Below are positions 8,161-62,322 of a stretch of DNA of 64,000 bases, piece after piece. The notes beneath the pieces were generated by a model. That model saw nothing but the letters and a program-made list of their open reading frames with translations. It made no database searches and was not told the origin of the DNA. The stretch is from NCBI GenBank assembly GCA_963741515.1, contig CAVUIA010000001.1:323767-387766 (forward strand). The letters are read 5' to 3'. Position 1 is the first letter of the stretch. Each line of letters begins with the position of its first letter. A program made the translations under genes and the position numbers. Origin of the DNA: an uncultured bacterium (GTDB lineage Bacteria > Desulfobacterota > Deferrimicrobia > Deferrimicrobiales > Deferrimicrobiaceae).

Positions 8161-8176
8161 GGCTTCTCCCGGACGG

Positions 8177-8650: not shown

Positions 8651-10738
8651 TCACTCCTCCTCCTCTTCTCCCATCTCCTTCTTCGCTTCCGCGATCACCT
8701 TCTCGGCGACGACGGCCGGCGCTTCCTCGTAATGGTCGATCTTCATGGTGAACTGCCCGCGCCCCGCCGTCATGGAGTTGAGGTCGGACGAGTAGCGGAG
8801 CACCTCGGCCAGCGGCACCTGGGCCCGGACGACCTGGCTCTTGCCCTATGGCGTCGACGCCCAGCACGCGGCCGCGCCGCCCGCTCATGTCGCCCATGAC
8901 GTCGCCCACGCTCTCATCGGGGACGACCACCTCCAGTTCGGCGATCGGCTCGAGCAGGATGGGCTTGGCGATGGCCGCCGCCTTCTTGAAGGCGAGGGAG
9001 CCGGCGATCTTGAACGCCATTTCGGAGGAGTCGACCGTGTGGAAGGAGCCGTCGAACACGGTCACCCGCACGTCGACCATCGGGTAGCCGGCGATGACGC
9101 CCTTGGACATCCGCTCCACGACGCCCTTCTCGACCGCGGGGATGTACTGCCGGGGGATCGACCCGCCGACGATGCCGTCGACGTATTCGAACCCTTTCCC
9201 GCGGGGCAGCGGCTCGATCCGGATCCAGCAGTCGCCGTACTGCCCGCGGCCGCCGGACTGCTTCTTGTGCTTGCCCTGCACCTCGGCCTTCCCCTTGATG
9301 GTCTCCAGGTAGGCGATCTTCGGGGTGCGCATCTCGACCTCGACGCTGTACTGCCGCTTGAGCTTCTCGACCACGACCTCGAGGTGGGTATCCCCCATCC
9401 CCGCGAGGATGAACTCGTTGGTCTGCGCATCCTTGCGGAAATGGATCGTCGGGTCCTCTTCCATCATCCGGGCGATCGACGCTCCCAGCTTGTCCTCGTC
9501 GTTCCGGGTCTTGGGGCGGACGGCGAAGGAGATGACCGGCTCCGTCTTCGCCGGGAGGGGCGAAAACGATCGGGCTCTTCGGGTCGCAAAGCGTGTCGCC
9601 CGTGGTGGTCTCCTTGAACTTGGCCACCGCGACGATCTCGCCGGCGGAAGCCGAGCCGACAGGTTTCTGCTTCTTCCCCTCCAGCCGGAGGATCTGGCCG
9701 ATCCGCTCCGACGCGTCCTTCGTGGAGTTCAGCGGGGACAGATCGGGGGTGAGGGTGCCGGAGAAGATCTTGAAGATGGAGAGCTTGCCGGCGTACGGGT
9801 CGGCGAGCGTCTTGAACACCTGCGCCGAGAACGGGCGCCTTCTCGGAGATCGCGCGCTTGTCCTCGGCCTTCGTCTTCGGGTTGGTCCCGGTCACGGAGC
9901 CCCGGTACGACGGATCGGGCAGCGCGATGTTGATCAGGTCCATCAGCGGCGCGATCCCGATGAGGCGGGCCGAGCTGCCGCAGACGACCGGCAGGAATTT
10001 CATCCCCTGGACGCCCGCCCGGAAGCCGGAGCGGATCTCGTCCTCGGAGAGCTCGCTCCCCTCGAGGAACTTCTCGATGAGGGCGTCGTCGGCCTCGGCG
10101 CACGACTCGACCAGCTTCTCCCGCGCCTTCGCCGCCGCGCCGGCCATGTCGGCGGGGATGTCCTGGACGGTGAACTCGCCGGCGTCGCCCTTGTAGACCA
10201 GCGCCTTCATCTTGAACAGGTCGATCACGCCGGAGAACGACGCCTCGCTCCCGATCGGAAGCAGCACGGGGACCACGGGGACTTTCAGTATCTCCGCCAT
10301 CTCCGCGACCGCCCGTTCGAAGTCGGCGCGCTCCTTGTCCATCTTGGAGACGTAACCGATCACCGGCACGTCGGCCGCGCGGGCGAGGCTCCACATCTTC
10401 TCCGTCTGGACCTCGACGCCCGAGACGGCGTTCACCACGAGGACCGCCCCGTCGAGGAAGCGCATGACCGCGCGCGTGTCCGCCTCGAAGTTGATGTAGC
10501 CCGGGGTGTCGCCCAGCGTCACCTCGACCTTGTTCCAGCTGTAATGGTGGAAGGACGTGCTGATCGTGATCTTCTTGCGGATTTCCTCCGGGTCGTAGTC
10601 GAAGTTCGAGCTTCCGTCGTCGACCTTCCCCATCCGGTCGACGGCTTTCGCGTTGAAGAGCAACGCCTCCGCGAGCGTCGTCTTCCCTGCGCCCCCGTGG
10701 GCGATTATCCCTACGTTCCTGATCTGCTGGATGTCCAC
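8651..10738 (-). CDS. elongation factor G-family GTPase (EF-G paralog), interrupted by two frame shifts
   Basis: G domain (GIIAHGGAGKTTL, DTPGYINF, VNAVSG), domain II (FKTLADPYAGKLSIFKIFSG), domains III-V (MGDTHLEVVVEKLKRQYSVEV...) and C-terminus (...GRGQFTMKIDHYEEAP...). These lie in three frames. An extra G was found at about 9817. Confidence 0.75.
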
Positions 10739-10774: not shown

Positions 10775-10815
10775 CTCGTATATAATACGCAGTCCTTCCA
10801 GAGTCAAATTCTCAT
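10775..10815 (-). promoter_or_regulatory. putative sigma70-type promoter (TTGACT-N17-TATATA) plus AAGGGAGG Shine-Dalgarno for the EF-G-like gene
   Basis: Hexamers and spacing read directly from the minus strand upstream of the GTG start at 10738. Confidence 0.35.
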
Positions 10816-10829
10816 CGATTTCATGGATT

Positions 10830-12352: not shown

Positions 12353-12384
12353 CACTACATATAAGCATTTCCATGCAACGGAAA

Positions 12385-14283: not shown

Positions 14284-14293
14284 CGGAGCGTCC

Positions 14294-33945: not shown

Positions 33946-34855
<910 letters not shown>

Positions 34856-36261: not shown

Positions 36262-36800
36262 GGCGATGCGATCTCCTCGGACACGATGTTGTCGTTCGTG
36301 TACATGCAGATCTCGGAGGCGACGCGCACGGCCTCCCGCGCGATCTCCCCCGCCGGGAGGTCGGTGTGGAGGAGCAGGGCGCGCGCCGCCGCCAGCGCGA
36401 AGGGGCCGCCCGACCCGATGCCGATCACGCCGTCGTCGGGCTCGACCACGTCCCCGTTCCCGGAAAGGAGGATGAGGTCCTTGCCGTCGGTGACCACCAT
36501 CAGCGCCTCCAGGCGCCGCAGCACGCGGTCGGTGCGCCAGTCCTTCGCCAGCTCGACCGCGGCCCTCCGCAGGTTCCCGCGGAATTCGGACAGCTTGGCC
36601 TCGAACTTCTCGAACAGGGTGAAGGCGTCCGCCGTGCTCCCGGCGAACCCCGCCAGCACCTGCCCCTCGTGGAGGCGCCGGATCTTCCGCGCCGTCCTCT
36701 TCAGCACCGCGTTCCCCATCGTCACCTGGCCGTCCCCCGCGACGGCCACGCACCCGCCCCGCGAGACGGCGACCACGGTCGTTCCCTGGAACTGCGTCAT
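36258..36800 (-). CDS. hslV: ATP-dependent protease subunit HslV
   Basis: [16 protein letters not shown]... with N-terminal Thr nucleophile and [17 protein letters not shown] overlaps the xerC stop. Confidence 0.85.
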
Positions 36801-37774
36801 TTTCCCTTCGCCCCCTTCCCGCCGCGCGCCTTTCCGGCGGCCAGCGGGTGCGCCTTCTCGTACATGCCCACCAGGTGAGACACGTCGACCCGGGCGTACC
36901 TCTGCGTCGTCGAGAGGGAGGCGTGCCCGAGCATCTCCTGGATCGCGCGCAGGTCGGCGCCCGACTCGAGGAGGTGCGTCGCGAAGGAGTGCCGGATCCC
37001 GTGGGGCGAAAGGTGGCGCCGCGCCCCCGGGCCGTTCCCGACCGCCTCCGACAGCATCCTCGCCACGCTGCGCGCCGAGATCCCCGCGCCGGATTTCCGC
37101 CCCACCTTCCCCCGCTGGTTCAAAAAGAGCGGCTCGTCGATGGCGCTGCGGAAATCGCCCCCCTGCGCCGCCGGGCGGACGGCCAGGTAGCCGCGCAGCG
37201 CGCGGACGGCCTTTTCCCCGACGGGGACCACCCGGACCTTCCTCCCCTTGCCCGTGACGCGGACCGTCCCGCCGTCGAGGGAAACGTCGCGCATCCTCAA
37301 GGACACGAGCTCCCCGACCCGCAGCCCCGAGGAGTAGAGCAGCTCGAGGATCGCGAGGTTCCGCTTCGACACCGGGTCGTCCGCCGGGAGGGAGGAGAGG
37401 AAGCCCGCCATCTCGTCCACCGGGAGGAACTCCGGGAGCCGCATCGACCTGCGGGGGGCGGACAGCCCGGACGCGGGGTTGGTCCGCACCTCCCCCACCT
37501 CGACGAGGAACGAAAAGAACGTGCGCACCGCGGAGAGCCGCCTGCAGACCGTCGAGGATTCGCGCCCGGGAAGCGACGAGGACAGGAACCGCCTCAGGTC
37601 GGCGGTGGAGACGAACCGCCAGCCGTCGCCGCCGTCGGGGTCTTTCCCCGCGGTCTCCACGAGGTGGTCCCGCAGCGCCCGGACCTCCCGGAGGTAGGCG
37701 CGGACGGTCTCCTTCGACGCGTTCCGTTCCGCCTCGAGAGACTTCCCGAACCGGCTGACAGCCCCACCGTCCAC
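36797..37774 (-). CDS. xerC: tyrosine site-specific recombinase XerC/XerD
   Basis: Intact 325-aa ORF with the R...HxxR...Y catalytic set ([24 protein letters not shown]). xerC-hslV-hslU synteny. Confidence 0.85.
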
Positions 37775-37868
37775 CGTGGCGTTTCCCCCGAAATGTAAAA
37801 GAGTTTTGTAACACTCAACGGGCCAGAATTCAAGCCGGAGGGCCGCGGTCCCCGGGCGGGAAGCGGTG

Positions 37869-39181
37869 TCAGATCAGCGCGGACGCGAATTTCCGGGCCG
37901 CGTCGAGGGCGACCTCCGCCTTCCGTTCCTTCCGTTCCTTCTTCCGGCGCACGGCCATCTCGGGGAGCAGGCCGAAGTTGGCGTTCATCGGCTGGGACGG
38001 CCCGGACCCGGGGGCGGTGATGTGGGCCATCAGCGCGCCGATCATGGACTCCGGCGGGAAGGGGGCCGGCTCCTTTCCGAAGGCGCGCGCCGCGGCGGAC
38101 ACCCCCGCGACCAGCCCCGAGGCGATCGATTCCACGTACCCTTCCACCCCGGTGATCTGCCCCGCGAAGAACAGCCCCGGCCGGCCGCGGAACTCCATGC
38201 AGGGCGTCAGGCAGCGCCGGGCGTCGATGAAGCTGTTGCGGTGGACCGAGCCGTACCGCAGGAACTCGGCGTTTTCCAGCCCCGGGACGAGGGAGAAGAC
38301 CCTCTTCTGCTCCGGGTACGTCATCCGCGTCTGGAAGCCCACGAGGTTGAACATCGTGCCTTCCGCGTTCTCCTTCCGCAGCTGCAGGACCGCGTGGGGG
38401 ATCCTCCCCGTTCGCGGGTCGGGGAGCCCCACGGGCCGCAGCGGCCCGAAGAGCAGCGTCTCGGGGCCGCGCCGGACGATCTCCTCCACCGGCATGCATC
38501 CCTCGAAGTACCTGGGCTCCTCGAATTCCCGCAGCGGCACGGTCTTCGCCGACAGGAGCGCGGCGAAGAACGCCTCGTACCGCTCCCGGTCCATGGGAAG
38601 GTTGAGATAGTCTCCCGTCCCCACGCCGTACCGGTCCGCGACGTACCCCGCGCCCGGGCCGATCGTCGCGGCGTCCACGATGGGGGAAATGGCGTCGTAG
38701 AAGTAGAAGCCGTCCTCGCCGATCAGCGCCGCGGATCGCCGAGGCGATGGCCTCGCTGGCGAGCGGGCCGCACGCCAGCACGACGAGCGGCGCGTCCGGG
38801 ATCCCGGTCGCCTCCTCCTCGAAGACCCGGATGCCGGGGGCGGACCGCACGGCCTCCGTCACCCGCGCGCGCGAACCGCTCCCGGTCCACCGCCAGCGCC
38901 TTGCCCGCGGGCACCCTCGCCGCGTCGGCGATCGGGAGCAGCGCCGACCCCAGGATCCGCAGCTCCTCCTTCAGCAGCCCCTTCCCGGAGACGACCTCCT
39001 CCGAGCCCAGGGAGTTGCTGCACACGAGCTCCGCGAACCAGCCCGTGCGGTGCGCCTCCGTCCGTCCGCCGGGGCGCATCTCGAACAGGTCCACGCCCAG
39101 CCCCGCGCCCGCGAGCTTCAGGGAAGCCTCGGACCCGGCGAGCCCGGCGCCCACGACCGTCACCCGGGCCCGCTCAGGCAT
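37869..39181 (-). CDS. trmFO: methylenetetrahydrofolate-tRNA-(uracil-5-)-methyltransferase TrmFO (one frame shift near 38700)
   Basis: N-terminal FAD Rossmann motif ([12 protein letters not shown]) and the conserved C-terminal body lie in two frames. Confidence 0.85.
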
Positions 39182-40859
39182 CTTCGGCCGCTTCCGGCTC
39201 CCTCCTTCTCCGCGATCGGGAAGAAAACGGAGAAGGTGCTCCCCTGCCCGGGGTGGGAGCGGGCCTCGATGAATCCCTTGTGGTGGTGCACGATCCGCTG
39301 GGAGATCGAGAGGCCGAGCCCCGTGCCCCCCTCCTTCGTCGTGAAGAAGGGGTTGAAGATCTTCTCCAGGTTCTGCGGGTCGATCCCGACGCCCGAGTCG
39401 GAGACCGTCAGCACGGCGTACCGGGTGCCGTGCCGGATCTGCTCGAAGGCGTCCACGATGATGCGGCCCCCCGGCGGCGTCGACTGCACCGCGTTGCGGA
39501 CCAGGTTCCAGACCACCTGCTTGAGCTGCGCGGCGTCTCCCTCGACCTCCAGCTCCTTCGTCGCCGCGTCCTCGATCAGGAGGTTTTTCTCCCTCCCCTC
39601 CCCGGTCCGTATGGCCCCCGCGACCTCGCGGAGGAGCGACGTCACCCGGACCCGGTCGACGCTCCGGATGGAGGTCCCCGTGTAGGAGAGGAAATCGGAG
39701 ATGAGGACGTTCAGCCGCTTGCTCTCCCGGTCGATGATCTCCAGGAGCGTGGCGGCGTCCTCCGGGACGTCGGGAGACTCGCGGAGGAGCTGGGAGGAGC
39801 CGGAGATGGAGGCGAGGGGGTTCCGGATCTCGTGCGCGAGCCCGGCGGCCATCTCCCCCACGCCGGCCAGGCGGTCGGCGATCCGCACGCGCTCCTCCAT
39901 CTGCTTGATGGGCGTCAGGTCCTGGAAGATGACCACGCGCCCGATGACGCCGCCGTCCGCGTCCCTCATCTGGGAGGCGGAGAACCCGAGGAAGATCTCC
40001 GTGCCGTCCGGCCGGACGAACCGGATCTCCGGGCGCGGCGCGGGCGGCTCGCCCCTCCGGGAGCGGTCCCCGTCGCCGTCGATCCCGCCGAGGATCTCCT
40101 GGAGCGGCCTGCCGGTCAGCTCGTCCGGCCCCACCCCGAGGATCGCGCACGCCGTGTCGTTATTGAGGGTGATCCTGCCTTCCAGGTCGGTCGTCAGGAT
40201 GCCGGAAGGGATGTTGTCGATCACGTTCTTGTGGAACGTCTCCAGCTTGCGGATCACCTCGTCCCGGTCCTGCACCCGCTCCATCCCCTTGCGGATGTCC
40301 TCCCCCAGCAGCCCCGAGAGGGCGCCGGTCAGGAAAAAGCCCGAGCAGTGGATGCCCGACGTGCGGAGGAACTGCGCCAGCGTGATCGTCGTTTCCTCGA
40401 AACCGGGCGGGGTGATGATCCTCTTCATCTGCAGGTAGATGAGGGTCGCGTAGGACACGGAGGAAAGCAGGGCCCACACGAGCGCCCCCTCCGGTAGCGC
40501 TCGAGGCTCCCGAGCAGGATCATCAGGACGTACATGAAGGAGAACACGCTCTCGATGCCGCCGGTGGCGAACACCAGGATCGAGATGAACCCCATGTCGA
40601 TCAGCGCCTGCACGTACGCGCCGACGTTCGGGAACTCCGTGCGCCCCCAGGCGGCGTACCGGAGCAGCAGCCACCCGTAGGACAGGAGGACCGCGAAATA
40701 GAGGTATTTGAACCCCGCGGACAGCAGCAGCTCCGGCTCGCGGAACTGCAGCGTCGCCACGGACGCCAGGAGCGCGAAGCTGATCCCCGACCGGACCAGG
40801 AGGAAATTGCGGCCCGCCTGTTCCTGCGCCCCGCGCCCCTCCGCGGGGACGGGAGGCAA
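39160..40859 (-). CDS. membrane sensor histidine kinase with a PAS domain (PilS-like), one frame shift near 40490
   Basis: N-terminal multi-TM region, PAS, HisKA (LAHEIRNPL) and HATPase_c (GTGLGLS). Lies directly downstream of pilC. Confidence 0.7.
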
Positions 40860-50836: not shown

Positions 50837-53800
50837 GTGATGACGCGGATCCCCCCATCCATACGGAAGCCGTCCCGGTACAGCGGGAGCGAAATCCGCC
50901 CCGCGCTGATTCCCTGGGAAGACGCCAAAACGCGCGTCCTGCTTGCGTTTCCCGACGCGTACGAGATCGGGATGTCCCACCTGGGGATCCTCCTGCTCCA
51001 CGAGATCCTCAACGCGCGGCCCGGGACGCTCTGCGAGCGCGTCTTCGCCCCGTGGACCGACTACGCGGAGCATCTGCGCGCCTCGGGGGAGCCGCTCCCG
51101 TCGCTCGAGTCGGGGCGCCCGGCCGGCTCCTTCGACATGGTCGGGTTCTCCCTCTGCTACGAGCTCACCTACACCAACGTCCTCATGATGCTGGAATTGG
51201 CGGGGATCCCGCTCCTGTCGAAGGACCGGGGCGAGGGGCATCCCCTGGTCGTCGGGGGGGGCGTCTGCACGCTGAACCCCGCCCCCGTCGCCCCCTTCTT
51301 CGACGCCCTCCTCGTGGGGGACGGCGAAGAGGCGGCGCTGGAGATCGTCTCCGCCGTCGAGGAGCGCAAGGCGAAGGGAGGGTCCCGCGCCGACCTGCTG
51401 GCGACGCTCGCCGGGATCGCCGGCGTGTACGTGCCGGGGGTCTCCATGGGCGTCTCCCGCCGGGTGCTGCCCGACCTCGCCCTCTCGCCGCTGCTGCCCG
51501 CGCCCATCCTCCCGTCGATGCGCGTGGTGCACGACCGGCTGAGCATCGAGATCTCCCGCGGCTGCACCCGGGGCTGCCGGTTCTGCCAGGCCGGCTACGC
51601 GTACCGGCCGGTGCGGGAGCGCGACCCGCTCGCGGTGCTGGCCTACCTGCAGGAAAGCGCCCCCAAGACGGGGTACGACGAGGTGGGGCTCCTGTCGCTC
51701 TCGGCCGCCGACTACAGCTGCATCGACCGGCTCGTCACCGAGGCGATGGACGCGCTGGCCCCGGACCACGTCTCCCTTTCGCTCCCGGCGCTGCGGCTGG
51801 ACGCCCTGACGGAGAACACGGTCGAGCAGCTCCGCAAGGTGCGCAAGTCGGGGTTCACGCTGGCGCCCGAGGCGGGGACGGAACGGCTGCGCCGCTCCGT
51901 GAACAAGGACATCCTCGACGACGACGTCCTCAAGACGGCGGAGTGGATCTTCGGGAACGGCTGGCAGACCCTCAAGCTCTATTTCATGGTGGGGCTCCCC
52001 GGCGAGACGAGCGAGGACGTGCGCGCCATCGGCCTGCTGGCGAAGCGGGTCGCCGCGGTCGCCCGGCGCAAGGGGAAGCGCTGCTCCGTCACGGTGAGCG
52101 TCTCCCCGTTCGTCCCGAAGCCGCACACGCCGTTCCAGTGGGAGCGCCAGGCCGGGCGGGACGAGATGCACGAGCGGATCCGGATCGTGCGGGACGCCCT
52201 CGGGCGGGAGCGGAACGCGGAGCTGAAGCACGCCTCGCCGGAGGTTTCCGAGCTGGAGGGCGTCTTCTCGCGCGGCGACGGCCGCCTCCCTTCGGTCATC
52301 CTTTCGGCGTACCGCAACGGGGCGCGGTTCGACGCGTGGACGGAGGAATTCCGCCCCGAGGCGTGGAGCCGGGCCTTCGCGGAGGCCGGCATCGACCCGC
52401 TCGAATACCTGAAGGAACGCGACCCGGCCGCCCCGCTCCCCTGGGACGTCGTCGACGCGGGCATCGACCGCGGCTTCCTGCTCGCCGAGCGGGAGAAGGC
52501 GCGGACCGGCGAGATCACCCCCGACTGCCGCTCCGCGGGATGCACCTCCTGCGGGGCGTGCCCGCCGGGGCTTTCGAACATAACGTACGCGGGCCGGCTG
52601 GCGGCGCCCTCCCCCGCCCCGGAGCCGGCGGCCCCCGCGCCGCCCGCGCCCTCCCCCCAGGCGCCGCCGCGGCGCCACGTCGTGCGGATCGCCTACGCCA
52701 AGGAGGGGCCGGCGAAATACCTGAGCGGCCTGGAGATCCAGTCGCTGTGGGGGCGCACTTTACGGCGCGCCGGGCTGCCGATCGCGTACAGCCAGGGGTT
52801 CAACCCCGCGCCGAAGCTTTCCCTCGGGCCGGCGCTGGCGGTCGGAACCGACAGCGGCTGCGAGTTCCTCGAGGCGGAGTTCACCCTTCCGGTCGTCGCC
52901 TCGGAGCTCCCGTCGATCCTGCCTCCGCACCTCCCCGCGGGCGTCCGCGTGATCGAGGCGAAGACGGTCCCGCCGGGCTCCCCGCGCATGTCCGACTACG
53001 ACCTGGCGTCCGACTACTCCCTGCGCCCGCTCCCCGGCTTCGCGCTCCCGGAAGGGATCACGCCTTCCCTGGCCGCGGAGCGGTTCGCCGCGTTCCGCGC
53101 CGCGCAAGCCTTTCCGCTGGCGCTCGTCCGCGAAGCGCAGGTGACCGAGGTGGACCTCCGCCCGCTGGTCGACGATTTCAAGGTGAATGCGGAGGGCATC
53201 TTCATTAAAATCATACAGGGCACGGGAAAAGGGGTGCGGCCGGCCGAGGCCGCCGCGGCGATCCTCGGCGTTCCGCTTTCGCCCGACCGGCTCGTCGTCA
53301 GGAAGGAATCGGCGGAGCCTGATCCCCCGCCCGGGAAAGACATGATGCAGAGACCCAGCAGGCACATCGTGGTGAACGCCGCGCCGTACGAGACGCGCGT
53401 GGCCACCCTCGAGTCCGGCGCCCTCGCGGAGCTGCTCATCGAACGGGGCGAGGACAAGAACTCCGTCGGCAACATCTACAACGGGAAGGTCATCCGGGTC
53501 CTGCCCGGCATGCAGGCCGCCTTCGTCGACATCGGCATGGACAAGGCGGGGTTCCTCTTCGCGGGCGACTTCGTCACCCCGCAGCTCGAGTTCGACACCG
53601 ACCCGGTCGAGGACCCCGGCCTCCCCGACGACATCGGCATCCGCCCGGCCCGCTACCCGCAGGACCATTTCCTCCCGCCGATCGAGGGGCTGATCCGCGA
53701 AGGGCAGCACCTCCTGGTCCAGGTCGCCAAGGAGCCGCTGGGGACGAAGGGCGCGCGGATCACCAGCCACATCACCCTGCCCGGCCGCCACCTGGTGCTC

Positions 53801-54874
53801 CTCACCTGGTCGAACCACATCGGGATCTCCCGGCGCATCGAGGACCCCGAGGAGCGGGACCGGCTGACGAAGATCGTCGAGTCGATCCGGCCCGAGGGGA
53901 TGGGCGCCATCGTCCGCACCGCCGCGGAGGGCGGCACCGAGGATTCGCTCCGGACCGACATGGACTACCTCGTCCGCCTGTGGGAGACGATCCGCAAGAA
54001 GAGCGAGAACGCCGCGGCCCCCGCCCTGATCCACCGCGAGCTCTCCCTTTCCATGCGCGCGGTGCGCGACCTGTTCTCCAGCGACTCGGACCGGATCGTG
54101 GTCGACTCCCCCGAGGAGCACACCCGGATCCGCGCGTTCGCCCAGCAGTTCTTCCCGCGCATCCTGGACAGGATCGAGCTGTACAACGGCCCCGAGCCCA
54201 TCTTCGACAACTACGGCATCGAGATCGAGGTGAACCGGGCGCTCGACAAGAAGGTGTGGCTCAAGAGCGGCGGGTACATCGTGATCGAGCAGACGGAGGC
54301 GCTCACCGTCGTCGACGTGAACACGGGGAAGTACGTCGGCCGCTCCTCGCTCGAGGACACGACGGTCAAGATCAACCTCGAGGCGGTCAAGGAGATCGTC
54401 TACCAGCTGCGGCTGCGCAACATCGGCGGGATCATCATCATCGACTTCATCGACATGAAGAGCGAGGAGAACCGCGAGAAGGTGTACAACGCCCTCGTCG
54501 ACGCGCTGGTGGCGGACCGCAGCAAGACGACGATCTGCAAGATCTCGGAGCTCGGGCTGGTCGAAATGACCCGGAAGCGCGTCCGGGAGAGCCTGGGGCG
54601 CTCCCTCTCCGAGGGCTGCCCCTACTGCTCGGGCGAAGGCGTCATCAAGTCGAAGAAGACGATCTGCTACGACATCTTCCGCGCCCTCGAGCGCCAGAGC
54701 CTGCTCCTGTCGGGCCGGCAGGTGTCGCTGTACGTCCACCCCGCCCTCGCCGAGGAGCTGTTCGGGGAGGAGCGCCGGTTCCTCGAGATCCTCGAGCAGA
54801 AGTTCGGCATGAAGGTGAACATCTCGGCGTCCGAGAAGTTCCACATCGAGCAGTACCGGATCGAGCCGAGCTGA
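50837..54874 (+). CDS. single 1345-aa ORF fusing a radical SAM domain, a DUF2344-like domain and an RNase E/G-family ribonuclease
   Basis: CTRGCRFCQAGY radical-SAM cluster (residues about 1-600), then HVVRIAYAKEGPAKYLSGLEIQSLWGRTLRRAGLP (DUF2344-like), then an S1 domain and RNase E/G catalytic core from MMQRPSRHIVVNAAPYETRVA. No stop in between. The first ATG is at 50840. Confidence 0.75.
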   Translation: MMTRIPPSIRKPSRYSGSEIRPALIPWEDAKTRVLLAFPDAYEIGMSHLGILLLHEILNARPGTLCERVFAPWTDYAEHLRASGEPLPSLESGRPAGSFDMVGFSLCYELTYTNVLMMLELAGIPLLSKDRGEGHPLVVGGGVCTLNPAPVAPFFDALLVGDGEEAALEIVSAVEERKAKGGSRADLLATLAGIAGVYVPGVSMGVSRRVLPDLALSPLLPAPILPSMRVVHDRLSIEISRGCTRGCRFCQAGYAYRPVRERDPLAVLAYLQESAPKTGYDEVGLLSLSAADYSCIDRLVTEAMDALAPDHVSLSLPALRLDALTENTVEQLRKVRKSGFTLAPEAGTERLRRSVNKDILDDDVLKTAEWIFGNGWQTLKLYFMVGLPGETSEDVRAIGLLAKRVAAVARRKGKRCSVTVSVSPFVPKPHTPFQWERQAGRDEMHERIRIVRDALGRERNAELKHASPEVSELEGVFSRGDGRLPSVILSAYRNGARFDAWTEEFRPEAWSRAFAEAGIDPLEYLKERDPAAPLPWDVVDAGIDRGFLLAEREKARTGEITPDCRSAGCTSCGACPPGLSNITYAGRLAAPSPAPEPAAPAPPAPSPQAPPRRHVVRIAYAKEGPAKYLSGLEIQSLWGRTLRRAGLPIAYSQGFNPAPKLSLGPALAVGTDSGCEFLEAEFTLPVVASELPSILPPHLPAGVRVIEAKTVPPGSPRMSDYDLASDYSLRPLPGFALPEGITPSLAAERFAAFRAAQAFPLALVREAQVTEVDLRPLVDDFKVNAEGIFIKIIQGTGKGVRPAEAAAAILGVPLSPDRLVVRKESAEPDPPPGKDMMQRPSRHIVVNAAPYETRVATLESGALAELLIERGEDKNSVGNIYNGKVIRVLPGMQAAFVDIGMDKAGFLFAGDFVTPQLEFDTDPVEDPGLPDDIGIRPARYPQDHFLPPIEGLIREGQHLLVQVAKEPLGTKGARITSHITLPGRHLVLLTWSNHIGISRRIEDPEERDRLTKIVESIRPEGMGAIVRTAAEGGTEDSLRTDMDYLVRLWETIRKKSENAAAPALIHRELSLSMRAVRDLFSSDSDRIVVDSPEEHTRIRAFAQQFFPRILDRIELYNGPEPIFDNYGIEIEVNRALDKKVWLKSGGYIVIEQTEALTVVDVNTGKYVGRSSLEDTTVKINLEAVKEIVYQLRLRNIGGIIIIDFIDMKSEENREKVYNALVDALVADRSKTTICKISELGLVEMTRKRVRESLGRSLSEGCPYCSGEGVIKSKKTICYDIFRALERQSLLLSGRQVSLYVHPALAEELFGEERRFLEILEQKFGMKVNISASEKFHIEQYRIEPS

Positions 54875-54884: not shown

Positions 54885-55055
54885 GGGGACGTTGATGAGT
54901 TCTCCCGCAGAACGGGGACACTCATGGGGACCACAAAACGGGGACGGACATGAGAAGGCCAACCTTCGTGCCTTCACGACTTCTCATGTACGTCCCCGTT
55001 ATTTTGGTCCGCTCTTCTCTGTCCCTAAACTGCGGGAGAACTCATCAACGTCCCG
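54885..55055. repeat. 171-bp nested palindrome (outer 26-bp perfect inverted repeat, inner 21-bp inverted repeat), MITE-like or large hairpin
   Basis: GGGGACGTTGATGAGTTCTCCCGCAG at 54885-54910 is exactly complementary to 55030-55055. Inner arms AACGGGGACgGACATGAGAAG and CTTCTCATGTACGTCCCCGTT pair too. Confidence 0.7.
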
Positions 55056-55061
55056 GTTCTG

Positions 55062-56303
55062 CTATTCGACCACGCTAATCCAGAACGCCTCGATGCCCCC
55101 CGCCACGGCGTAACCGCGCGCCTTGACCTGGATATTGTTGTCGATGGCCGCATCGGTCAGTCGCGCGTGGGGGAAAGCCGCGTTGTCGTAGTACGCAAGG
55201 GACCGGTCCGGTATCGGGAAGACCGCGTTGTCCGACGCCAGCCGGAGATCGAACGTGTTGTCGGCCTTCCACCCGCCATCGACAACACCCGTTAATTCGG
55301 CCGGGAAGGTGATGCCCACCTTCTCCGCCACGAGAACGCCGCCCAGGAACGTCCCGATCACGTGCACAAGGGCGGTGTCCCGCAGGGCATCGGGGCCCGA
55401 AATTCCCAACGAAGCCAACGAACCCACGTAACGCCCATCATAGTAGTACCAGAGGGTCCCCGATCCGTAATCGACGCCGACGTTGTCGCTGGCCGTCTTC
55501 ACGACGAATGTCCCGTTCGCACGGTCCACCTGGTCCGCGACGCCGGTGACGATGTAATTCGGGGCGCCGACCACCTCCGCGAAGACCTGCGGCCGCAGCA
55601 GGACGTTGCCGCTGCCGCCGGCCTGGTGGTACTTCAGGCCGACCACATTGATGACCACCGAGTAGAACCGGATCCCTCCCTGCGGGTCCGAAGACGCCGG
55701 GATCACGAGTTTCCCGCCGACGAAGTGAACGTCGAAGTGGTAATGCGCCGTGGGGTGGAACAGCACATCGGGCGCGCCCGCGGCGCGGCCGACCACGTTG
55801 TCGTAATACATCCGGATCTTGGAATACTCGCCCGCCGGCACCGAGGAAAACCTGTTCAGCACATTTCCCGCCATCTCCCCCCCCGTCGGGGGATGAAGCA
55901 GGTCGATCACGACGGGTTCGGCCAGCTCCACCGTGACGAACTCCGACGACCTGCCCTCCTCGGCGTGGGAGTTCATCGTTTCCAGCTCCCCGTTATGGTC
56001 CGGGAATTGGGTATGGTCGGCGGGGATCAGCGCCAGTCTCGTCACCGTCACGAAGACGTTGTCGAAGGCCGGGGAATTCCCGGGCGCCGCTGCGATATCC
56101 GATGACACGCTCGAGGATGCCAACGTCGCCCCCGCGGGGAAAGCCGTGGCGGACGCGATGGAGACGTTGACCGAGGCCGCTCCGGACGTGCCGGAGGAGG
56201 AGGACGTCCCCCCCCCTCCCCCGCAGGCCGCAAGGCCGGCGGTGATCATAAGGACAAGCAGCAGGCGGATCGCGGTGCGCGATGTTTCAGACAGAGACTT
56301 CAT
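55062..56303 (-). CDS. hypothetical lipoprotein (413 aa)
   Basis: MKSLSETSRTAIRLLLVLMITAGLAAC lipobox, then a Gly/Ser-rich linker. ATG follows a GAGGAGGGG Shine-Dalgarno. Confidence 0.65.
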   Translation of the reverse strand: MKSLSETSRTAIRLLLVLMITAGLAACGGGGGTSSSSGTSGAASVNVSIASATAFPAGATLASSSVSSDIAAAPGNSPAFDNVFVTVTRLALIPADHTQFPDHNGELETMNSHAEEGRSSEFVTVELAEPVVIDLLHPPTGGEMAGNVLNRFSSVPAGEYSKIRMYYDNVVGRAAGAPDVLFHPTAHYHFDVHFVGGKLVIPASSDPQGGIRFYSVVINVVGLKYHQAGGSGNVLLRPQVFAEVVGAPNYIVTGVADQVDRANGTFVVKTASDNVGVDYGSGTLWYYYDGRYVGSLASLGISGPDALRDTALVHVIGTFLGGVLVAEKVGITFPAELTGVVDGGWKADNTFDLRLASDNAVFPIPDRSLAYYDNAAFPHARLTDAAIDNNIQVKARGYAVAGGIEAFWISVVE

Positions 56304-56349
56304 GTTCCCCTCCTCTATGGTTCCATTTAATGTCGGTTCGCCGATTTTC

Positions 56350-57345
56350 CTACCTGAAAACAATCCTCGATGCGGAAAGAACGCCGCCGTTTTCCCTCCC
56401 CTGAACCTGGACTTTCCTGTCGGGCTCCCCGGCATCGGCCGAACCGCCGCCGATGAACGCCGTATCGGCGCTCCATACCACCCTCTTCCCCTCCACTTTG
56501 AAGGAGAGATCGTTTCCGGAACCGCCCCATGGCGTCGTGACCAGGCCGGTGAGGGCGGCCTCGGCCCCCTCCGGAAAATCGGTCCGCGCGGCATGCGTCT
56601 CCACACGGGTGGCGGTGATGATGTTGGCGACAGGCGCCCGGTCGGTCGTTACGACCTGAACGTATGAGCCGTTCGCGGGCCCGCCCGCGGGGAAGGAAAC
56701 CGTCACGGTTGTCCCGGAGCCGTCCGGCAGCGGCCCGACGCGAAAACCGGCCGCGGACGATGCGGAGACGAACCCATGGACTTCGAACTCCTGGAAAGGC
56801 GGCGGCATCGGGGGACCCGCGACGGAAACGTACGCCGCACGGATCCGCCCGGCGTTATCCGCATACCCGCTGACCTCCACGACGTCGTCCAGGCCGAGGG
56901 AGAGAAAGAGCGCGGCATTATCCACGACGACGGCCTGTCCCAGGATTCCGATGACGTTGTCGGCGCCGGGGACGATCGCGCTAATGGGCCCCCGCAGGCT
57001 GTTCCGGTATTCGATCGCCCGGGCGTTGTTGTCGCCTGTCCCGTATCGAACCGTCACGACCATCCCCTCGGAGAAAACATCCCTGTCCTTCTGGTGAGAC
57101 TTGTCCGCCCCGTTGACCCACTTTCTCGTCATGTATCCGGGAGCCACGTTGTTGTCCGTGCGGAAATGCACATCGTTGACAACGACGCTGCCGAAGCCGG
57201 AGATCTCGCCCGTGCTGATCCCCGTGCCGCCCGTTCCGCCGCCGGCGAAATCGGTGCCGCTCGTCCCGCAAGAGAGGGAGAGAAGAACCAGCAAGAGCAT
57301 CGGTGCCCCGATACGGAATACGGGCGTTCGATTCGCCGGTTTCAT
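56350..57345 (-). CDS. hypothetical lipoprotein (331 aa)
   Basis: MKPANRTPVFRIGAPMLLLVLLSLSCG lipobox. Its start overlaps the stop of the upstream gene. Confidence 0.65.
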   Translation of the reverse strand: MKPANRTPVFRIGAPMLLLVLLSLSCGTSGTDFAGGGTGGTGISTGEISGFGSVVVNDVHFRTDNNVAPGYMTRKWVNGADKSHQKDRDVFSEGMVVTVRYGTGDNNARAIEYRNSLRGPISAIVPGADNVIGILGQAVVVDNAALFLSLGLDDVVEVSGYADNAGRIRAAYVSVAGPPMPPPFQEFEVHGFVSASSAAGFRVGPLPDGSGTTVTVSFPAGGPANGSYVQVVTTDRAPVANIITATRVETHAARTDFPEGAEAALTGLVTTPWGGSGNDLSFKVEGKRVVWSADTAFIGGGSADAGEPDRKVQVQGRENGGVLSASRIVFR

Positions 57346-58172
57346 CTCTCCCCTCCCCCGCCGCCATCCCCCTGGAAATAATAGATGCCGACCCCCGCCC
57401 GCATTTTGCCCGTCCCGGCGACCCCGGGATGGAAGTCCCGGTCCTGCCGGCTCAACTCGCCGTCCAGATTTTCCAGGAGCTCCTGCGCCCGGGCCGCTGC
57501 GAGCGCCCTGAACCCGGGAAGCGCCTCGGAAGGAAGGTTGTCGTAGCAGACCTTCCTCTGGTAGAACAGGTCGCCCATTCGCTGGATGTTGTGGTCGATC
57601 GTCGATATCAGGTCCGCCGTGTCGACGCCCAGGATGCCGATCTTGTCGATCTCGCCGGTTTTCGGGATGTAGGACCGCTCGAGCAACCGCATGTTTCCTT
57701 CCTGCGTCCGCTCGACCGCCCCGAGTCTCAGAAGTTCATCGAGCACCGCCCGGGCGGGGGCGTCGCCGCTGTAGATCTTGACCAGTTCCCCGAAGCAGGC
57801 GGCATCCCCTTCGAACGGCAGCTCCATCGGCCGCCCCGATTCCCGATGGAACCGCGGGTCCCGCACCCAGCCGCCGATCACGCGCGCCGCCCGGTTGTAC
57901 CGTTCCGCAGCGCCCATATCGTCCGTGGGCGGCAGGCGCCTCACGCGCAGGACTTCCTTGCGCGACAGGCCGGTGATGATGGACACCCGCGATTTGGACT
58001 GCTTCCTTCCGGCGATTCCGAATTCCTCCTCCATGGCGACGTCCACGTATACCCGCTTCGCGAGATCGGAAAACGTCCGGTAAGGGATGCCGTTTCTCAG
58101 GAGGAGCCTTACCAGCGGGCGGAGCATGGTCGCGACGGCCGCCGATAAGGCCTGGGTGATTTTCGATTCCAT
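57342..58172 (-). CDS. hypothetical protein (276 aa), first gene of a three-gene operon with the two lipoproteins
   Basis: Intact ORF with normal composition and a possible N-terminal HTH-like stretch (RTFSDLAKRVYVDVAMEEEFGIAGRKQSKSRVSIITGLSRKEVLR). No confident family. Confidence 0.5.
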   Translation of the reverse strand: MESKITQALSAAVATMLRPLVRLLLRNGIPYRTFSDLAKRVYVDVAMEEEFGIAGRKQSKSRVSIITGLSRKEVLRVRRLPPTDDMGAAERYNRAARVIGGWVRDPRFHRESGRPMELPFEGDAACFGELVKIYSGDAPARAVLDELLRLGAVERTQEGNMRLLERSYIPKTGEIDKIGILGVDTADLISTIDHNIQRMGDLFYQRKVCYDNLPSEALPGFRALAAARAQELLENLDGELSRQDRDFHPGVAGTGKMRAGVGIYYFQGDGGGGGER

Positions 58173-58174
58173 AT

Positions 58175-58191
58175 TTGGGAATTTATTCCCA
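58175..58191. promoter_or_regulatory. 16-bp perfect palindrome TGGGAATTTATTCCCA immediately upstream of the start codon of the 57342-58172 gene
   Basis: Exact inverted repeat in the AT-rich divergent region shared with the tRNA-Thr promoter. Confidence 0.3.
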
Positions 58192-58320
58192 TTTTAAATC
58201 AGTGTCAACTATTAATAAACGGGCGATCGATCGCCTGCCCTTTCATTGCGGGGCGATTCCGGCTTGACTTTGTCCGACCGCCCTATCTATATTTATAAAT
58301 TCGCGAGTTACCGTTCGTGC

Positions 58321-58395
58321 GCCGGCGTAGCTCAGTGGTAGAGCAGCTGATTCGTAATCAGCAGGTCGTCGGTTCAATCCCGACCGCCGGCTCCA
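58321..58395 (+). tRNA. tRNA-Thr (anticodon CGU) with encoded CCA
   Basis: Cloverleaf read directly: acceptor GCCGGCG/CGCCGGC, D-arm GCTC-AGTGGTA-GAGC, anticodon stem GCTGA/TCAGC with loop TTCGTAA, T-arm GTCGG-TTCAATC-CCGAC, discriminator T, CCA. A TTGACT-N18-TATATT promoter-like motif lies upstream. Confidence 0.9.
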
Positions 58396-58505
58396 CGTTT
58401 TTCCCATGCCGATACGTGAGGGATTGAACCTACGCACAATCCCGATGGCCATGGATGGCCAAGTGCCGGCGCGGCCAGGGATGGCCACGGATCTTGTTGC
58501 GCCGG

Positions 58506-58521
58506 CCGACCGCCGGCTCCA
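58506..58521 (+). repeat. 16-nt direct repeat of the tRNA-Thr 3' end (CCGACCGCCGGCTCCA), 111 bp downstream of the tRNA
   Basis: Exact match to tRNA positions about 58380-58395. Signature of a former site-specific integration at the tRNA. Confidence 0.6.
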
Positions 58522-58532
58522 CTCCTGGTGGA

Positions 58533-58603
58533 GGACAGACTTCCCCTCCGCCCGTTATCGGTAAATCGAAGTCTGTCCCCTGCCGCCTCCCCTTCCCCTA
58601 TCG
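58533..58603 (-). repeat. hairpin-containing repeat element, copy B (inverted relative to copy A at 5134-5208)
   Basis: Same stem GGACAGACTTC/GAAGTCTGTCC. The loop is the reverse complement of copy A's loop with three substitutions. The flank CGATAGGGGAAGGGGAGGCGGCAGGGGAC resembles CGATATAGGCGTAGGCGGTTTCGGGGGAC. Confidence 0.5.
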
Positions 58604-58702
58604 TAATGCGATCCTGCGCCATCCTCGTGCGCGGGAAAATTGATATAATTTAAACATGGGGGAACGGAGGAGATCGGCCGCTTCGGGACGGAAGGAGGAC
58701 CA

Positions 58703-58912
58703 ATGCAAACATACGATGTTTACCGCGTGGACTATGCAAAGCATCAAAAGGTGCCGATGGGCAAGGTCGTCGAGCGAAGGAACAGGAAACGGCCGGACAA
58801 CGTCCTGGGACTGTTGAGAGTGGCGCGAAAGACTTTCGGCTGGAACCCGGACTATGACATGCATATCGTGCTCGATAAAAACGCCTTGAAGGATAACGAA
58901 AGGGCGGGGTGA
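58703..58912 (+). CDS. small hypothetical protein (69 aa)
   Basis: Strong AAGGAGG Shine-Dalgarno 7 nt before the ATG, normal composition (MQTYDVYRVDYAKHQKVPMGKVVERRNRKRPDNVLGLLRVARKTFGW...), terminator at the stop. Confidence 0.5.
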   Translation: MQTYDVYRVDYAKHQKVPMGKVVERRNRKRPDNVLGLLRVARKTFGWNPDYDMHIVLDKNALKDNERAG

Positions 58913-58928
58913 CCCGCCCTTTTTCTTT
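58902..58928. terminator. bidirectional rho-independent terminator (GGGCGGG-gtga-CCCGCCC, TTTTTCTTT on the plus strand, TTTCGTT on the minus strand)
   Basis: Perfect 7-bp GC stem with U-tracts on both strands between the convergent small genes 58703-58912 and 58932-59201. Confidence 0.6.
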
Positions 58929-58931
58929 GGA

Positions 58932-59201
58932 CTAGTAAGCCTCGGAATCCGCCCCCGGAACCGCCCCCGCACCTATCGCACCGCTTGCCTGCCAGCCCGC
59001 GCCGAACATGCTTCCCTCCGACCCGCTCTTTCCCATGGGGCCGACAGCGTAGTCCTTATACTGTTCGACCGCCTCCTGGTCCTGAAGGGTCCACGCCGGG
59101 TTTTCCGATGGATATCCTTCCGCCAGCGCGACACCGAAACCGACCGCCGCCCCCGCGATCAGAATTCCTGCGATAAACATCCCGACAATCGCCTTTTTCA
59201 T
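58932..59201 (-). CDS. small secreted or membrane-anchored protein (89 aa) with an N-terminal signal peptide
   Basis: MKKAIVGMFIAGILIAGAAVGFGVALAEG..., GGGGAGGGG Shine-Dalgarno, Gly/Ala-rich C-terminus. Confidence 0.5.
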   Translation of the reverse strand: MKKAIVGMFIAGILIAGAAVGFGVALAEGYPSENPAWTLQDQEAVEQYKDYAVGPMGKSGSEGSMFGAGWQASGAIGAGAVPGADSEAY

Positions 59202-59584
59202 GTTCGTCCCCTCCCCTGAAAGGGGTTCGATCCGGATTCCCTCCCTGTTCCTGAAAATTTAGGTTCGGGCCATCAGGGTGAAGTTTCCCGGCGGGAAAAA
59301 ATAGATGACTCGGCCAGCCGATTTCTGGAAATATTTTTCCCATTGTAGCGCGTTTCCATTTAACGCCATTGCATACTGACAACAATATCCCTTTTAAAAT
59401 GAATACTTACCTGGGACGGGATATTGGTGTAAATATTGCTTCGGTTGGAAAGACTGTTTATTTTTCTTCCGATCGGATGGTCTTTGATATTGATATCCAT
59501 TCCCGCAAGAGGGATAATTTGTTTGCGGCGATGCCTCGGTGACCAGGGTTGGTTCTCCACCTGGCTCGCTAACGAGATCGCCCA

Positions 59585-59642
59585 GGCGCTGAGTCAGTCC
59601 GATTCCCGCTTCACCTGACTGACCCGGCGCCACTTTTTCCCC
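59585..59642 (+). terminator. terminator-like hairpin plus T-tract about 80 nt upstream of the PEP-CTERM gene (possible attenuator or sRNA 3' end)
   Basis: GGCGC-tga-GTCAGTC...GACTGAC-ccg-GCGCC followed by ACTTTTTCCCC. It sits inside a roughly 500-bp AT-rich leader with no convincing ORF. Confidence 0.35.
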
Positions 59643-59720
59643 CTATTGGCGTGGATTGCTACAGGGCGTCGCGGCCACGGTCGCGGGAAATTAAACACAT
59701 TGCACGGTAAGGGGCAATAG

Positions 59721-59927
59721 ATGAAGAAAGCAGTTATCCTCTCGATATTTTACTTTGTGGTCTTGCTGCTGTCCTCGGTGCCGGCAATATCCGCGTTAAT
59801 AGCGGAAAACGACATATTGCGTGCGGGTTATTCCTTCCTCGTCCCGGAACCCTCCACGACGCTCATGCTGCTGGGGGGAGGACTGGTTGGATTGCTTGGA
59901 TATCGTCGCTGGAAGAGAATGACGTAA
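59721..59927 (+). CDS. very small PEP-CTERM-anchored protein (68 aa)
   Basis: Signal peptide MKKAVILSIFYFVVLLLSSVPAISA, a 16-aa core, then VPEP + TM helix + basic tail (LGYRRWKRMT*), the canonical exosortase sorting signal. Confidence 0.7.
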   Translation: MKKAVILSIFYFVVLLLSSVPAISALIAENDILRAGYSFLVPEPSTTLMLLGGGLVGLLGYRRWKRMT

Positions 59928-60070
59928 GCCACCCTTCCGCGCCATAGGACGAACACCGGTCTCACAAACAGACAAACAACGGTTCTCATTCAGGACAGGG
60001 GCCGATACCGGGAGGCGCCGGACAGCATTACTGTGATTCAAACGACTCGCCAGCCAGAAAGGCCGTGGTC

Positions 60071-60244
60071 ATGAGAAGATTTTTAGCGATCTGCATTCTG
60101 GCATCGGCATTCCTGTCCATACCTATGGCCGAGGCAGCTTTCACCACCTCCAACACGGCAGCGCCCGGACTCTCCACGCTGCTGCTCCTTGGGAGTGTAT
60201 TGGCGGGACTGTTTTGGAATCGTCGCAGGAGGAGAATGACGTAA
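60071..60244 (+). CDS. second tiny paralog (57 aa) with a degenerate PEP-CTERM-like tail
   Basis: Not in the ORF track (below 60 aa). MRRFLAICILASAFLSIPMAEA + AFTTSNTA + APG-LSTLLLLGSVLAGLF-WNRRRRRMT*. The 3' codons and downstream 12 nt (GAATGACGTAAGCCA) are nearly identical to the first gene. Confidence 0.5.
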   Translation: MRRFLAICILASAFLSIPMAEAAFTTSNTAAPGLSTLLLLGSVLAGLFWNRRRRRMT

Positions 60245-60333
60245 GCCATGGCTCTTCGGTAAAGGTGGGTTGCGATATTGCCGATAAGATGAGCGTGGGG
60301 TGGCTGACAAAATCGATGGCTACGGAGTAAGTC

Positions 60334-60507
60334 GTGAATATCTCATCTTCCCTGCTCGTTATATTCGTAATAATTGCACTTATAATCGCGGCTATACGGT
60401 TTTTAGTAAATAAACATCAAGCGACCGACAAACATATCCATGAGGAAAATAAGCGGATAATCATGAAAAACATGAAGCTGAAGAGGACCTGGATATCTAA
60501 ATATTAG
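60334..60507 (+). CDS. candidate small single-TM membrane protein (57 aa) in an AT-rich stretch
   Basis: GTG start after GGAG. SLLVIFVIIALIIAAIRFLV TM helix, then a Lys-rich tail. Start and frame were read by eye. Confidence 0.3.
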   Translation: MNISSSLLVIFVIIALIIAAIRFLVNKHQATDKHIHEENKRIIMKNMKLKRTWISKY

Positions 60508-60527
60508 AGATCACTGCAGGCCAACCC

Positions 60528-60833
60528 TCACGCCTTCTTGCTCCGGGTCCGGCCCTTCTTTCCCATCTCCTCCATTTTGCACTTGTTCACGCACTGCCAC
60601 GATACCCGGTAGTAGCCCCCTTCCGGCATTTGCTTTATGGCCATGAGGTGTTCGGCGCCGCATACCTTGCACCGCAACTTTCCCGTGTGCCCGTCGACCA
60701 ATTCCATGACCCTCGGCGGCGCTTTCCCTTTCCTTGGAACGTCCCACAGTCTCGACTTGCACTCCGGGCATGACTTGGGCCTGCCCTCGATCCTCGGCTG
60801 CCAGTTGTATCCGCACCGTTTACATAGAACCAT
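60528..60833 (-). CDS. double zinc-ribbon protein (about 101 aa)
   Basis: CKRCGYNW...CPECKS and CKVCGAEH...CVNKC Cys pairs. Lys/Arg-rich C-terminus. ATG MVLCKRCG. Confidence 0.5.
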   Translation of the reverse strand: MVLCKRCGYNWQPRIEGRPKSCPECKSRLWDVPRKGKAPPRVMELVDGHTGKLRCKVCGAEHLMAIKQMPEGGYYRVSWQCVNKCKMEEMGKKGRTRSKKA

Positions 60834-61467
60834 CCGGCCTCCCCGCGCTTGAACGTTCCTTCTTCGGCTTCCACTCACGCACTTGCTTTTGCGCCTGGGC
60901 GACCTGTTCCAGGGTCATGTTGTACGCGGCGCTGTCCCTGTTGCCGACGGCCTGCTCGCGAACCTCCCGATCGGAGTCGGCAAACCGGGAGGCCGCAATC
61001 GCAAACCAGACATAGGCGGAATAAAAATCCTGCGGCACGCCTTTGCCCACGGCGTACATGATGCCGAGGTTGTTCTGGGCGCGGGGTACCCCCTGCTCCG
61101 CCGCTCTCGCGTACCACTTCGCGGCCTCGGAGTAGTCCTGCCACACGCCCTGGCCGTTTTCGTACATGACGCCCAGGTTGTTCTGCCCCTCCCCATCCCC
61201 CTGGTCCGCCGCTTTCGAGTACCACTTCACCGCCTCGCCGTAGTCCTTCCCCACGCCTTGACCCGATTGGTACATGTAGCCGAGGATGTTCTGGGCCTTG
61301 GGCAATCCCTTTTCGGCCAGCGGTTTGGTGAGACGGTAGGCGGCGGCGTAGTCGCCGCGGTCGAAGGCCCTCACGATATCCTCGATCGGTCCCGCGGGAG
61401 CCGCGACGGCAAGGGAACTCGTCAGTATGGATGCCATCAACATCAAAGCGATCGTGATTTTTCGCAT
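60820..61467 (-). CDS. Sel1-repeat (TPR-like) secreted protein
   Basis: Signal peptide MRKITIALMLMASILTSSLAVAAP, then three or more Sel1 repeats (GQGVxxDYxEAxKWYxKAAxQG). Confidence 0.75.
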   Translation of the reverse strand: MRKITIALMLMASILTSSLAVAAPAGPIEDIVRAFDRGDYAAAYRLTKPLAEKGLPKAQNILGYMYQSGQGVGKDYGEAVKWYSKAADQGDGEGQNNLGVMYENGQGVWQDYSEAAKWYARAAEQGVPRAQNNLGIMYAVGKGVPQDFYSAYVWFAIAASRFADSDREVREQAVGNRDSAAYNMTLEQVAQAQKQVREWKPKKERSSAGRPDGSM

Positions 61468-62133
61468 GCGATGCCTCCGTCTCCGACCTTCCGTTTCGAC
61501 GTGCGCCATCCACTTCATTATTCCATCATTCGGCGGCAGCAATTACCTATTGATAACTATTTCCCGAATGGCGATAATTACCTCATGGGCGGATCAGCCG
61601 CCCCACATGCGCTGTGGCGACCAGGAATTCGGTCCTGACCACCGCCAAGGCGCTGGCCCAGGCGCTGCGTCGTGCCGAATCCGCTTTCACGGCTACCGAC
61701 TCGGCGCCTCTTTTTTTCCCCCAAAACAAGAAAATTTCCGATAATCTTGGCATATTCGATGCTGGTATATGGTCATCGAACACCGGAAGGCTGTGCTCCC
61801 AATACGCCTCGGAGGGGGGAAACATGAAACTATCCGACAGGTTATCCCTTCCGCCCACATCCGGCGTCCTGGTTCTGCCGGTTACATTTCCGAATTCCAT
61901 GAATGCGAATTACAAAGGGAAGCACAATGCCTTCCCGTATTAATCCTGTCCGCATCACCCTGTTCAAGACCGAGGATGGCACGGCGGGAAAGGATCTTCA
62001 CCAAAACCGCCTTGGCCGAACCCCCGTCCCTCGCGGCCTCAACCGCTCCCAGCCCGGAAGCGACGGCCGGGACGCCCCGCCGGACCCGGGACGGGAGACC
62101 GGAAGCGAACCCGATGAACCGGAATGATCTGCA

Positions 62134-62322
62134 TCAAGCCGGTTCGGCCCCGGGAGCGTTCTCGCTCTTTTTCGGCGCCCACTCCCCGCACCAATGGTTG
62201 TAGACCACGGTGACGACAGTGGGGAACCGGTGGCATTTGTCCATTTCGCCCTGGACCATTCCCGAGCGGCCCGCCGCGCAGAAATAACAGCTCGAGCACC
62301 TCTCTCCTGACGGTCCCGACAT
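62134..62322 (-). CDS. small Cys-rich protein (62 aa) downstream of kup
   Basis: Strong GAGGAGG Shine-Dalgarno. CSSCYFC...CHRF...WCGEW. Family unknown. Confidence 0.4.
   Translation of the reverse strand: MSGPSGERCSSCYFCAAGRSGMVQGEMDKCHRFPTVVTVVYNHWCGEWAPKKSENAPGAEPA

Follow-up and report, generated by a model that had tools for sequence, protein, structure and literature searches.

Does an uncultured bacterium of the family Deferrimicrobiaceae make a single protein in which a radical SAM (rSAM) enzyme, a DUF2344-like domain and a ribonuclease of the RNase E/G family are joined end to end, or are these parts joined only in the assembly of its genome? The question is raised by one long open reading frame (ORF) at positions 50837..54874 of a 64,000-nucleotide stretch of contig CAVUIA010000001.1, hereafter the window, which an initial annotation had described as either a genuine three-way fusion or the product of lost stop codons. 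As argued below from sequence comparisons, the 1345-aa fusion is most probably an assembly artefact created by one extra C, and the organism itself most likely has no such three-way fusion. For now the locus is best treated as two genes.

The ORF itself is as first described. An ORF listing and a stop-free translation confirm one uninterrupted frame on the + strand, with a GTG start and 1345 codons encoding about 147.5 kDa, and Pfam and NCBIfam profiles confirm that all three domains lie in it, in the order TIGR03960 radical SAM module, TIGR03936/DUF2344 domain and complete Rne/Rng ribonuclease. Directly after the GTG at 50837 stands an ATG at 50840, from which the protein begins MTRIPPS... 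as in relatives; this ATG is likely the true start of the fused ORF. The fraction of G or C at third codon positions (GC3) is 0.95 across the entire ORF, in a genome of 68% GC, so the whole frame is coding and did not arise by chance in high-GC DNA. Both codons that had been proposed as internal restarts are present, a GTG at 52682-52684 (codon 616) and an ATG-ATG at 53342-53347 (codons 836-837).

Comparison with orthologous loci does not reproduce the three-way fusion. As a homologue set we used the 120 best matches of the full-length protein in 5.8 billion protein clusters, which share 67-87% identity with it, measure 742-853 aa and come from metagenome-assembled genomes labelled Deferrimicrobium or 'Deltaproteobacteria'. 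All 120 carry only PF19864, PF04055 and PF10105, and an RNase E/G domain was found in none of them; a fused close relative would have ranked first. At the level of gene order, we compared 32 orthologous loci, 7 reached through exact-protein look-ups and 25 from GTDB species representatives among the matches listed. In every one of them rSAM-DUF2344 and rng are separate, directly consecutive genes (0/32 fused). A second copy of the genome from which the window comes was found neither among the GTDB representatives listed nor in the protein collection, where the best match reached 87% identity. The first gene, where the locus is complete, encodes 829-858 aa and has the conserved end ...(K/V)SAELIPRRG(KA) before its stop, a C-terminal motif kept down to about 50% identity, while the rng product begins MQ(K/R)... 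and is 509 aa long in nearly all complete loci.

The junction between the two genes varies among these relatives, from a TGATG stop/start overlap (L001, L006) and a 31-nt overlap (L004, L005, L011) to TAG-ATG (L008) and gaps of 1, 4 or 7 nt elsewhere. Throughout the Deferrimicrobium-like lineage the rSAM-DUF2344 gene is always directly upstream of rng, with stop and start overlapping or nearly abutting, and, judged from these alignments of loci, the ancestral state in the lineage is two genes, not three adjacent genes as the initial annotation had cited for many genomes. In 20 distant loci, no rSAM or DUF2344 gene was found within 4 kb of rng, and the association is therefore lineage-restricted in this sample. 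One relative deserves mention on its own account: in L008 (positions 4337-4350, CAZTFC010000006.1) the two genes lie in the same frame, separated by TAG-ATG alone, and there one substitution or stop-codon readthrough would yield the same three-way fusion.

In the window, frame continuity at the DUF2344-RNase G junction hangs on one nucleotide. At 53318..53319 (+ strand) the window reads CC against a lone C in every relative, a +1 insertion that turns GAGCTGAT into GAGCCTGAT; the relatives all read GGCGGAGCTGAT... and the window reads GGCGGAGCCTGAT.... The insertion moves the last 8 codons of the first gene into the frame of rng, EPDPPPGKD takes the place of the conserved C-terminal ELIPR(R/P)GK., and the peptide that bridges the junction as sequenced is SAEPDPPPGKDMMQRPSR. 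The ancestral TGA stop of the rSAM-DUF2344 gene, at 53343..53345 (+ strand) and 24 nt downstream of the extra C, is intact and overlaps the rng ATG as TGATG; it lies out of frame because of the single extra C, and the stop codon itself is not mutated. The suggestion of lost stops thus came closer to the truth than that of a fusion, with the qualifications that only the DUF2344-RNase G junction is abnormal and that the TGA is unchanged.

Deleting one C restores what is seen elsewhere in the lineage. Gene 1 then encodes 834 aa, ending ...VVRKESAELIPRPGKT before the stop (or ...SAELIPRPGKT; the corresponding end in P0001 is ...VVRKESAELIPRREKA), and its TGA at 53343-53345 overlaps the ATG (53345) that opens an rng of 509 aa. 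The same base is singled out when 6-14 kb (up to 13.9 kb and 11 genes) are aligned pairwise with MAFFT against five relatives of 84-90% nucleotide identity: the coding indels are all multiples of three nucleotides (3, 6, 9, 12, and 13 + 134 = 147) with one exception, the +1 at about 53318, which appears against each of the five comparators. The repaired gene 1 shares its domain order, linker and length with more than 100 'radical SAM-linked protein' homologues of the TIGR03960-TIGR03936 type, from which the window version differs by a frameshift over its last 8 codons and by reading on into rng.

A sequencing or assembly error is the likeliest cause of the extra C, over a biological loss of the stop, because the window holds about 20 further one-base indels. 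In Pfam scans argB, a pilS-like kinase gene, trmFO and hslU are each split between frames. For argB (34600..34680, - strand), AA_kinase profile positions 1-45 fall in one ORF and 42-234 in another; aligned to PDB 2buf, frame A matches residues 9-69 and frame B residues 67-297, and the break is at HGGGPQI, where a deletion at about 34634 has reduced G5 to G4 (DNA CACGGGG-CGGGCCG). In the pilS-like sensor kinase (40470..40500, - strand), a G6 to G5 deletion at about 40491 leaves the 6TM domain in one frame and the PAS-HisKA-HATPase part in another. Positions 2-99 and 173-390 of the GIDA profile lie in different ORFs of trmFO (38700..38900, - strand), which has two +1 indels, at about 38731 and about 38867 (GG to GGG at the latter). 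An EF-G-like gene (9540..9850, - strand) likewise has two +1 indels, at about 9556 and about 9833 (CC to CCC at the latter), the methylmalonyl-CoA mutase gene is also split by frame switching, and hslU has about 6 frame switches.

When the frames are joined, these genes become whole. GIDA matches at full length (profile 2-390/391, 268 bits), the MM_CoA_mutase profile is covered from 10 to 512 of 512, 6TM_PilS spans the joint (profile 15-183/189) and the EF-G-like protein regains all five domains in order. We mapped the frame breaks with a codon-usage Viterbi frame tracker, which reproduces the breaks placed by Pfam and PDB within a few nucleotides. It detects 22 same-strand frame switches without a nearby stop, about 15 of them of the insertion type, though a few may be ordinary gene boundaries; the switches cluster at 5.8-14 kb and 34.6-40.5 kb (5800-14300 and 34600-40500, minus strand). 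The validated insertions are of the same kind as that at the junction, an extra C or G beside the same base. Repeated breaks inside single, otherwise intact, conserved essential genes are a hallmark of consensus indel errors and not of biology; the contig needs polishing, and unusual ORFs anywhere in it deserve distrust. Separately, at about 12036 (- strand), BirA-like and type III pantothenate kinase (CoaX-like) frames join, with the upstream frame stop-free for about 500 nt; this join is either another indel or a BirA-CoaX fusion.

Nanopore assembly followed by Illumina polishing typically leaves clustered residual indels. The junction shares with spurious fusions and splits in long-read or hybrid assemblies a one-base indel against all relatives, whose repair restores the protein end, and many frame breaks in housekeeping genes of the same contig; it differs in sitting outside both dense error clusters. 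We looked for motif-linked (methylation-type) errors and rejected them: near the frame breaks GATC shows no significant enrichment (P ~0.08), and CTGATC/GATCAG, which occurs near 3 of the 22 breaks and near the junction (post hoc P ~0.01), was not used since 46 of its 50 sites are clean. For context only, one genome from the lineage is documented as having been assembled with wtdbg2 from Nanopore data and then polished with Illumina reads (PMC9386147).

Several observations weigh against an artefact. The 41-55 kb block that holds the junction is otherwise clean in comparison with a relative and the other indels cluster elsewhere, so that the local error rate is below the window average, which keeps our confidence in the artefact from being higher than it is. 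The insertion is C to CC, outside any long homopolymer. All three modules have intact motifs and the high GC3 noted above, and other RNase E/G proteins tolerate N-terminal extensions.

Much of this would also favor a real, recent, strain-specific frameshift, in which case the ~147-kDa polypeptide would be no selected architecture but an accident, neutral or mildly deleterious, and internal initiation at ATG 53345 might still yield some free RNase G. We regard this as unlikely. The absence of any other coding frameshift in the 13.9-kb block around the junction makes the local quality look good, the junction is labile among relatives (the 31-nt overlaps in L004, L005 and L011 and the in-frame TAG-ATG of L008), the tolerance of the RNase E/G family for N-terminal extensions applies here as well, and the Pro-rich bridging peptide would serve as a flexible linker. 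However, the allele is unique among the 32 loci, the 120 homologues and metagenome contigs (neither the window junction string nor the insertion allele was found in JGI metagenome contigs), and it destroys a C-terminal motif that is otherwise conserved to about 50% identity. It would also abolish termination-reinitiation coupling where the Shine-Dalgarno sequence of rng is weak, and the assembly that holds it contains about 20 indel errors of this class that can be demonstrated. That the CC allele is real and that the strain makes a ~147-kDa polypeptide covalently linking RNase G to an RNA-directed radical SAM enzyme whose recognition domain has a pseudouridine-synthase (PUS) fold is, in our judgment, distinctly improbable. 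Were the allele real, rng would no longer be coupled to gene 1 and the 147-kDa fusion would account for most of the RNase G produced, which is structurally conceivable; were the tethered polypeptide made, it would count as a natural experiment, demonstrating that both conserved neighbours work within a single complex on shared RNA substrates.

A stronger claim would be that the fusion is genuine and selected, tethering an RNA-directed radical SAM enzyme to RNase G. The tight adjacency of the two genes, conserved in the lineage, speaks for it, as does the RNA-enzyme fold of DUF2344, which makes a partnership with rng plausible. Yet no such fusion was found among the relatives, in the search of 5.8 billion clusters or in the top 150 of 1.84 billion representatives, and in the window the out-of-frame TGA and the TGATG overlap are untouched, with one base changed. 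Apart from that base, the junction has no difference from the relatives that would point to an old or adapted fusion, and with the stop and overlap left as they were we see no sign of one. A selected fusion is accordingly a very remote prospect in our assessment.

The search among the 1.84 billion representatives was an exhaustive phmmer run with a junction-balanced query of 405 aa, comprising DUF2344 and the first 175 residues of RNase G. No protein matching both halves of the query in frame was found among the top 150 listed, a scope beyond which distant fusions that score lower, or that lie inside 50% clusters, would fall. Five proteins were considered as precedents for the fusion and rejected: P0123 carries RNase G in tandem, P0155, P0180 and P0225 are extended at the N-terminus by low-complexity sequence, and P0156, a fragment of 155 aa, spans the junction only by way of several changes of frame. 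P0123, at 1034 aa, contains two complete RNase G copies in tandem and is either a real duplication-fusion or itself an assembly artefact.

We also considered that programmed ribosomal frameshifting or recoding joins the two ORFs, given a G_GGA_AAG-like string near the junction in both the window and L008. But the window as sequenced requires no frameshifting, the heptamer is not conserved (it is missing in L001, L006 and L014), and relatives differ in the frame of one gene with respect to the other (-1, 0, +1). No conserved downstream structure was seen, though none was looked for. With no conserved slippery site and a variable frame relation we rejected this explanation, to which we give almost no credence.

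The artefact concerns only the second of the two joints in the ORF. The first, between the radical SAM module and DUF2344 at about 52.6 kb, is by sequence conservation a genuine fusion shared across the lineage: the two modules are fused in 120 of the 120 closest homologues and in all 32 orthologous loci, and the length of the linker between them differs among relatives by multiples of three nucleotides only (3, 6, 12, 147). The GTG at 52682 is therefore not a restart, contrary to the initial suggestion, since it sits within this conserved fusion.

The first module of gene 1 (50840..52561, + strand) is a B12-binding-type radical SAM module of the TIGR03960 family, matched at 620.4 bits against a curated NCBIfam cutoff of 462.3. 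It comprises Radical_SAM_N2 (PF19864, residues 50-200, 186.5 bits), an rSAM core (Radical_SAM, PF04055, residues 237-398, 69 bits) in which the CX3CX2C motif is intact (CTRGCRFC, residue 243), and a C-terminal Cys cluster (CRSAGCTSCGAC, residue 564). A Pro/Ala-rich linker follows (52562..52681, + strand; residues ~576-615), and then the TIGR03936/DUF2344 domain (52682..53317, + strand; residues 616-811), with 132.4 bits to TIGR03936 against a cutoff of 71.9 and 115.6 bits to PF10105 against 23.8. DUF2344 has the TruA-like fold in common with TruA-type pseudouridine synthases, at a sequence identity of about 12%. The loop of TruA that carries the catalytic Asp reads GRTDxGVHA, and its DUF2344 counterpart appears to read AYSQGFNPAP; the catalytic competence of the domain is doubtful. 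In the library searched, no functional papers on DUF2344, TIGR03960 or TIGR03936 were found, and the PDB yielded no sequence relative of the DUF2344 domain.

Gene 2, rng (53345..54874, + strand), encodes an Rne/Rng-family ribonuclease of 509 aa beginning MQRPSRH..., the length found in nearly all complete relatives. In the numbering of the fused ORF, RNase_E_G and the Thio domain occupy residues 980-1343 and the alignment to the RNase G model begins at residue 843. The protein scores 505.4 bits with TIGR00757 (cutoff 325.95) and 519.6 bits with the RNase G equivalog NF008689, below its cutoff of 594; for that reason it is best named Rne/Rng family, RNase G-like. Its catalytic Asp-containing motifs VDVN (residue 1159) and DFIDM (residue 1203), which we take to match D303 and D346 of the Escherichia coli enzyme, and the Zn-link CPYCSGEG (residue 1261) are present. 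Like RNase G, it has S1, catalytic, Zn-link and small domains without the scaffold tail of RNase E, and its N-terminal part is 75-95% identical to rng of relatives; it differs from them in that, as sequenced, it has no ORF of its own. Upstream of its ATG stands a weak Shine-Dalgarno-like GGGAAAG (53333..53339, + strand; -4.3 kcal/mol to the anti-Shine-Dalgarno sequence), and the match is also weak in all 10 relatives tested (-2.9 to -7.4 kcal/mol).

Other parts of the window are recorded here for completeness. Between rng and tRNA-Thr(CGT) (58321-58395) lie about 3.4 kb (54920-58287) that are absent from the relative L053, in which rng is followed directly by the tRNA region. This segment has slightly lower GC and minus-strand ORFs matching DUF4382 (weakly), DUF5666 and DUF6502, and no integrase was seen in it. 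The region 58400-62300 has lower GC (0.50-0.59) and almost no coding signal in the codon model; it contains only a Sel1-repeat protein (60820-61542, - strand) and a small Cys-rich, Zn-ribbon-like ORF (60528-60878, - strand). A tyrosine recombinase of XerC/D type (Phage_integrase with a SAM-like N-terminal domain) at 36797-37873 (- strand), between hslV and trmFO, belongs to an ordinary xerC-hslVU arrangement and is not a mobile element.

Taken as an assembly artefact, the three-way fusion gives way to a simpler picture. The true locus would consist of two translationally coupled genes, an rSAM-DUF2344 gene of about 834 codons followed by a 509-codon rng, with the TGATG overlap between them. 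The extra C would be a consensus indel introduced by assembly or basecalling, and we infer that it is an error and not a mutation. Under this arrangement most translation of rng would depend on termination-reinitiation coupling to gene 1, and the two would be co-expressed. Annotated unchanged, the ORF would be recorded in databases as a new rSAM-DUF2344-RNase G architecture and would prompt speculation on its function. The conserved coupling of a radical SAM enzyme that carries a PUS-fold domain to rng is real, and of modest interest. The rSAM-DUF2344 protein may be an RNA-directed radical SAM enzyme in which the PUS-fold domain recognises RNA, and it may act in an RNA-maturation pathway shared with RNase G. 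Joint action of the TIGR03960/TIGR03936 family and RNase G on RNA is a reasonable lead, though as a guilt-by-association hypothesis and not as a finding of the window.

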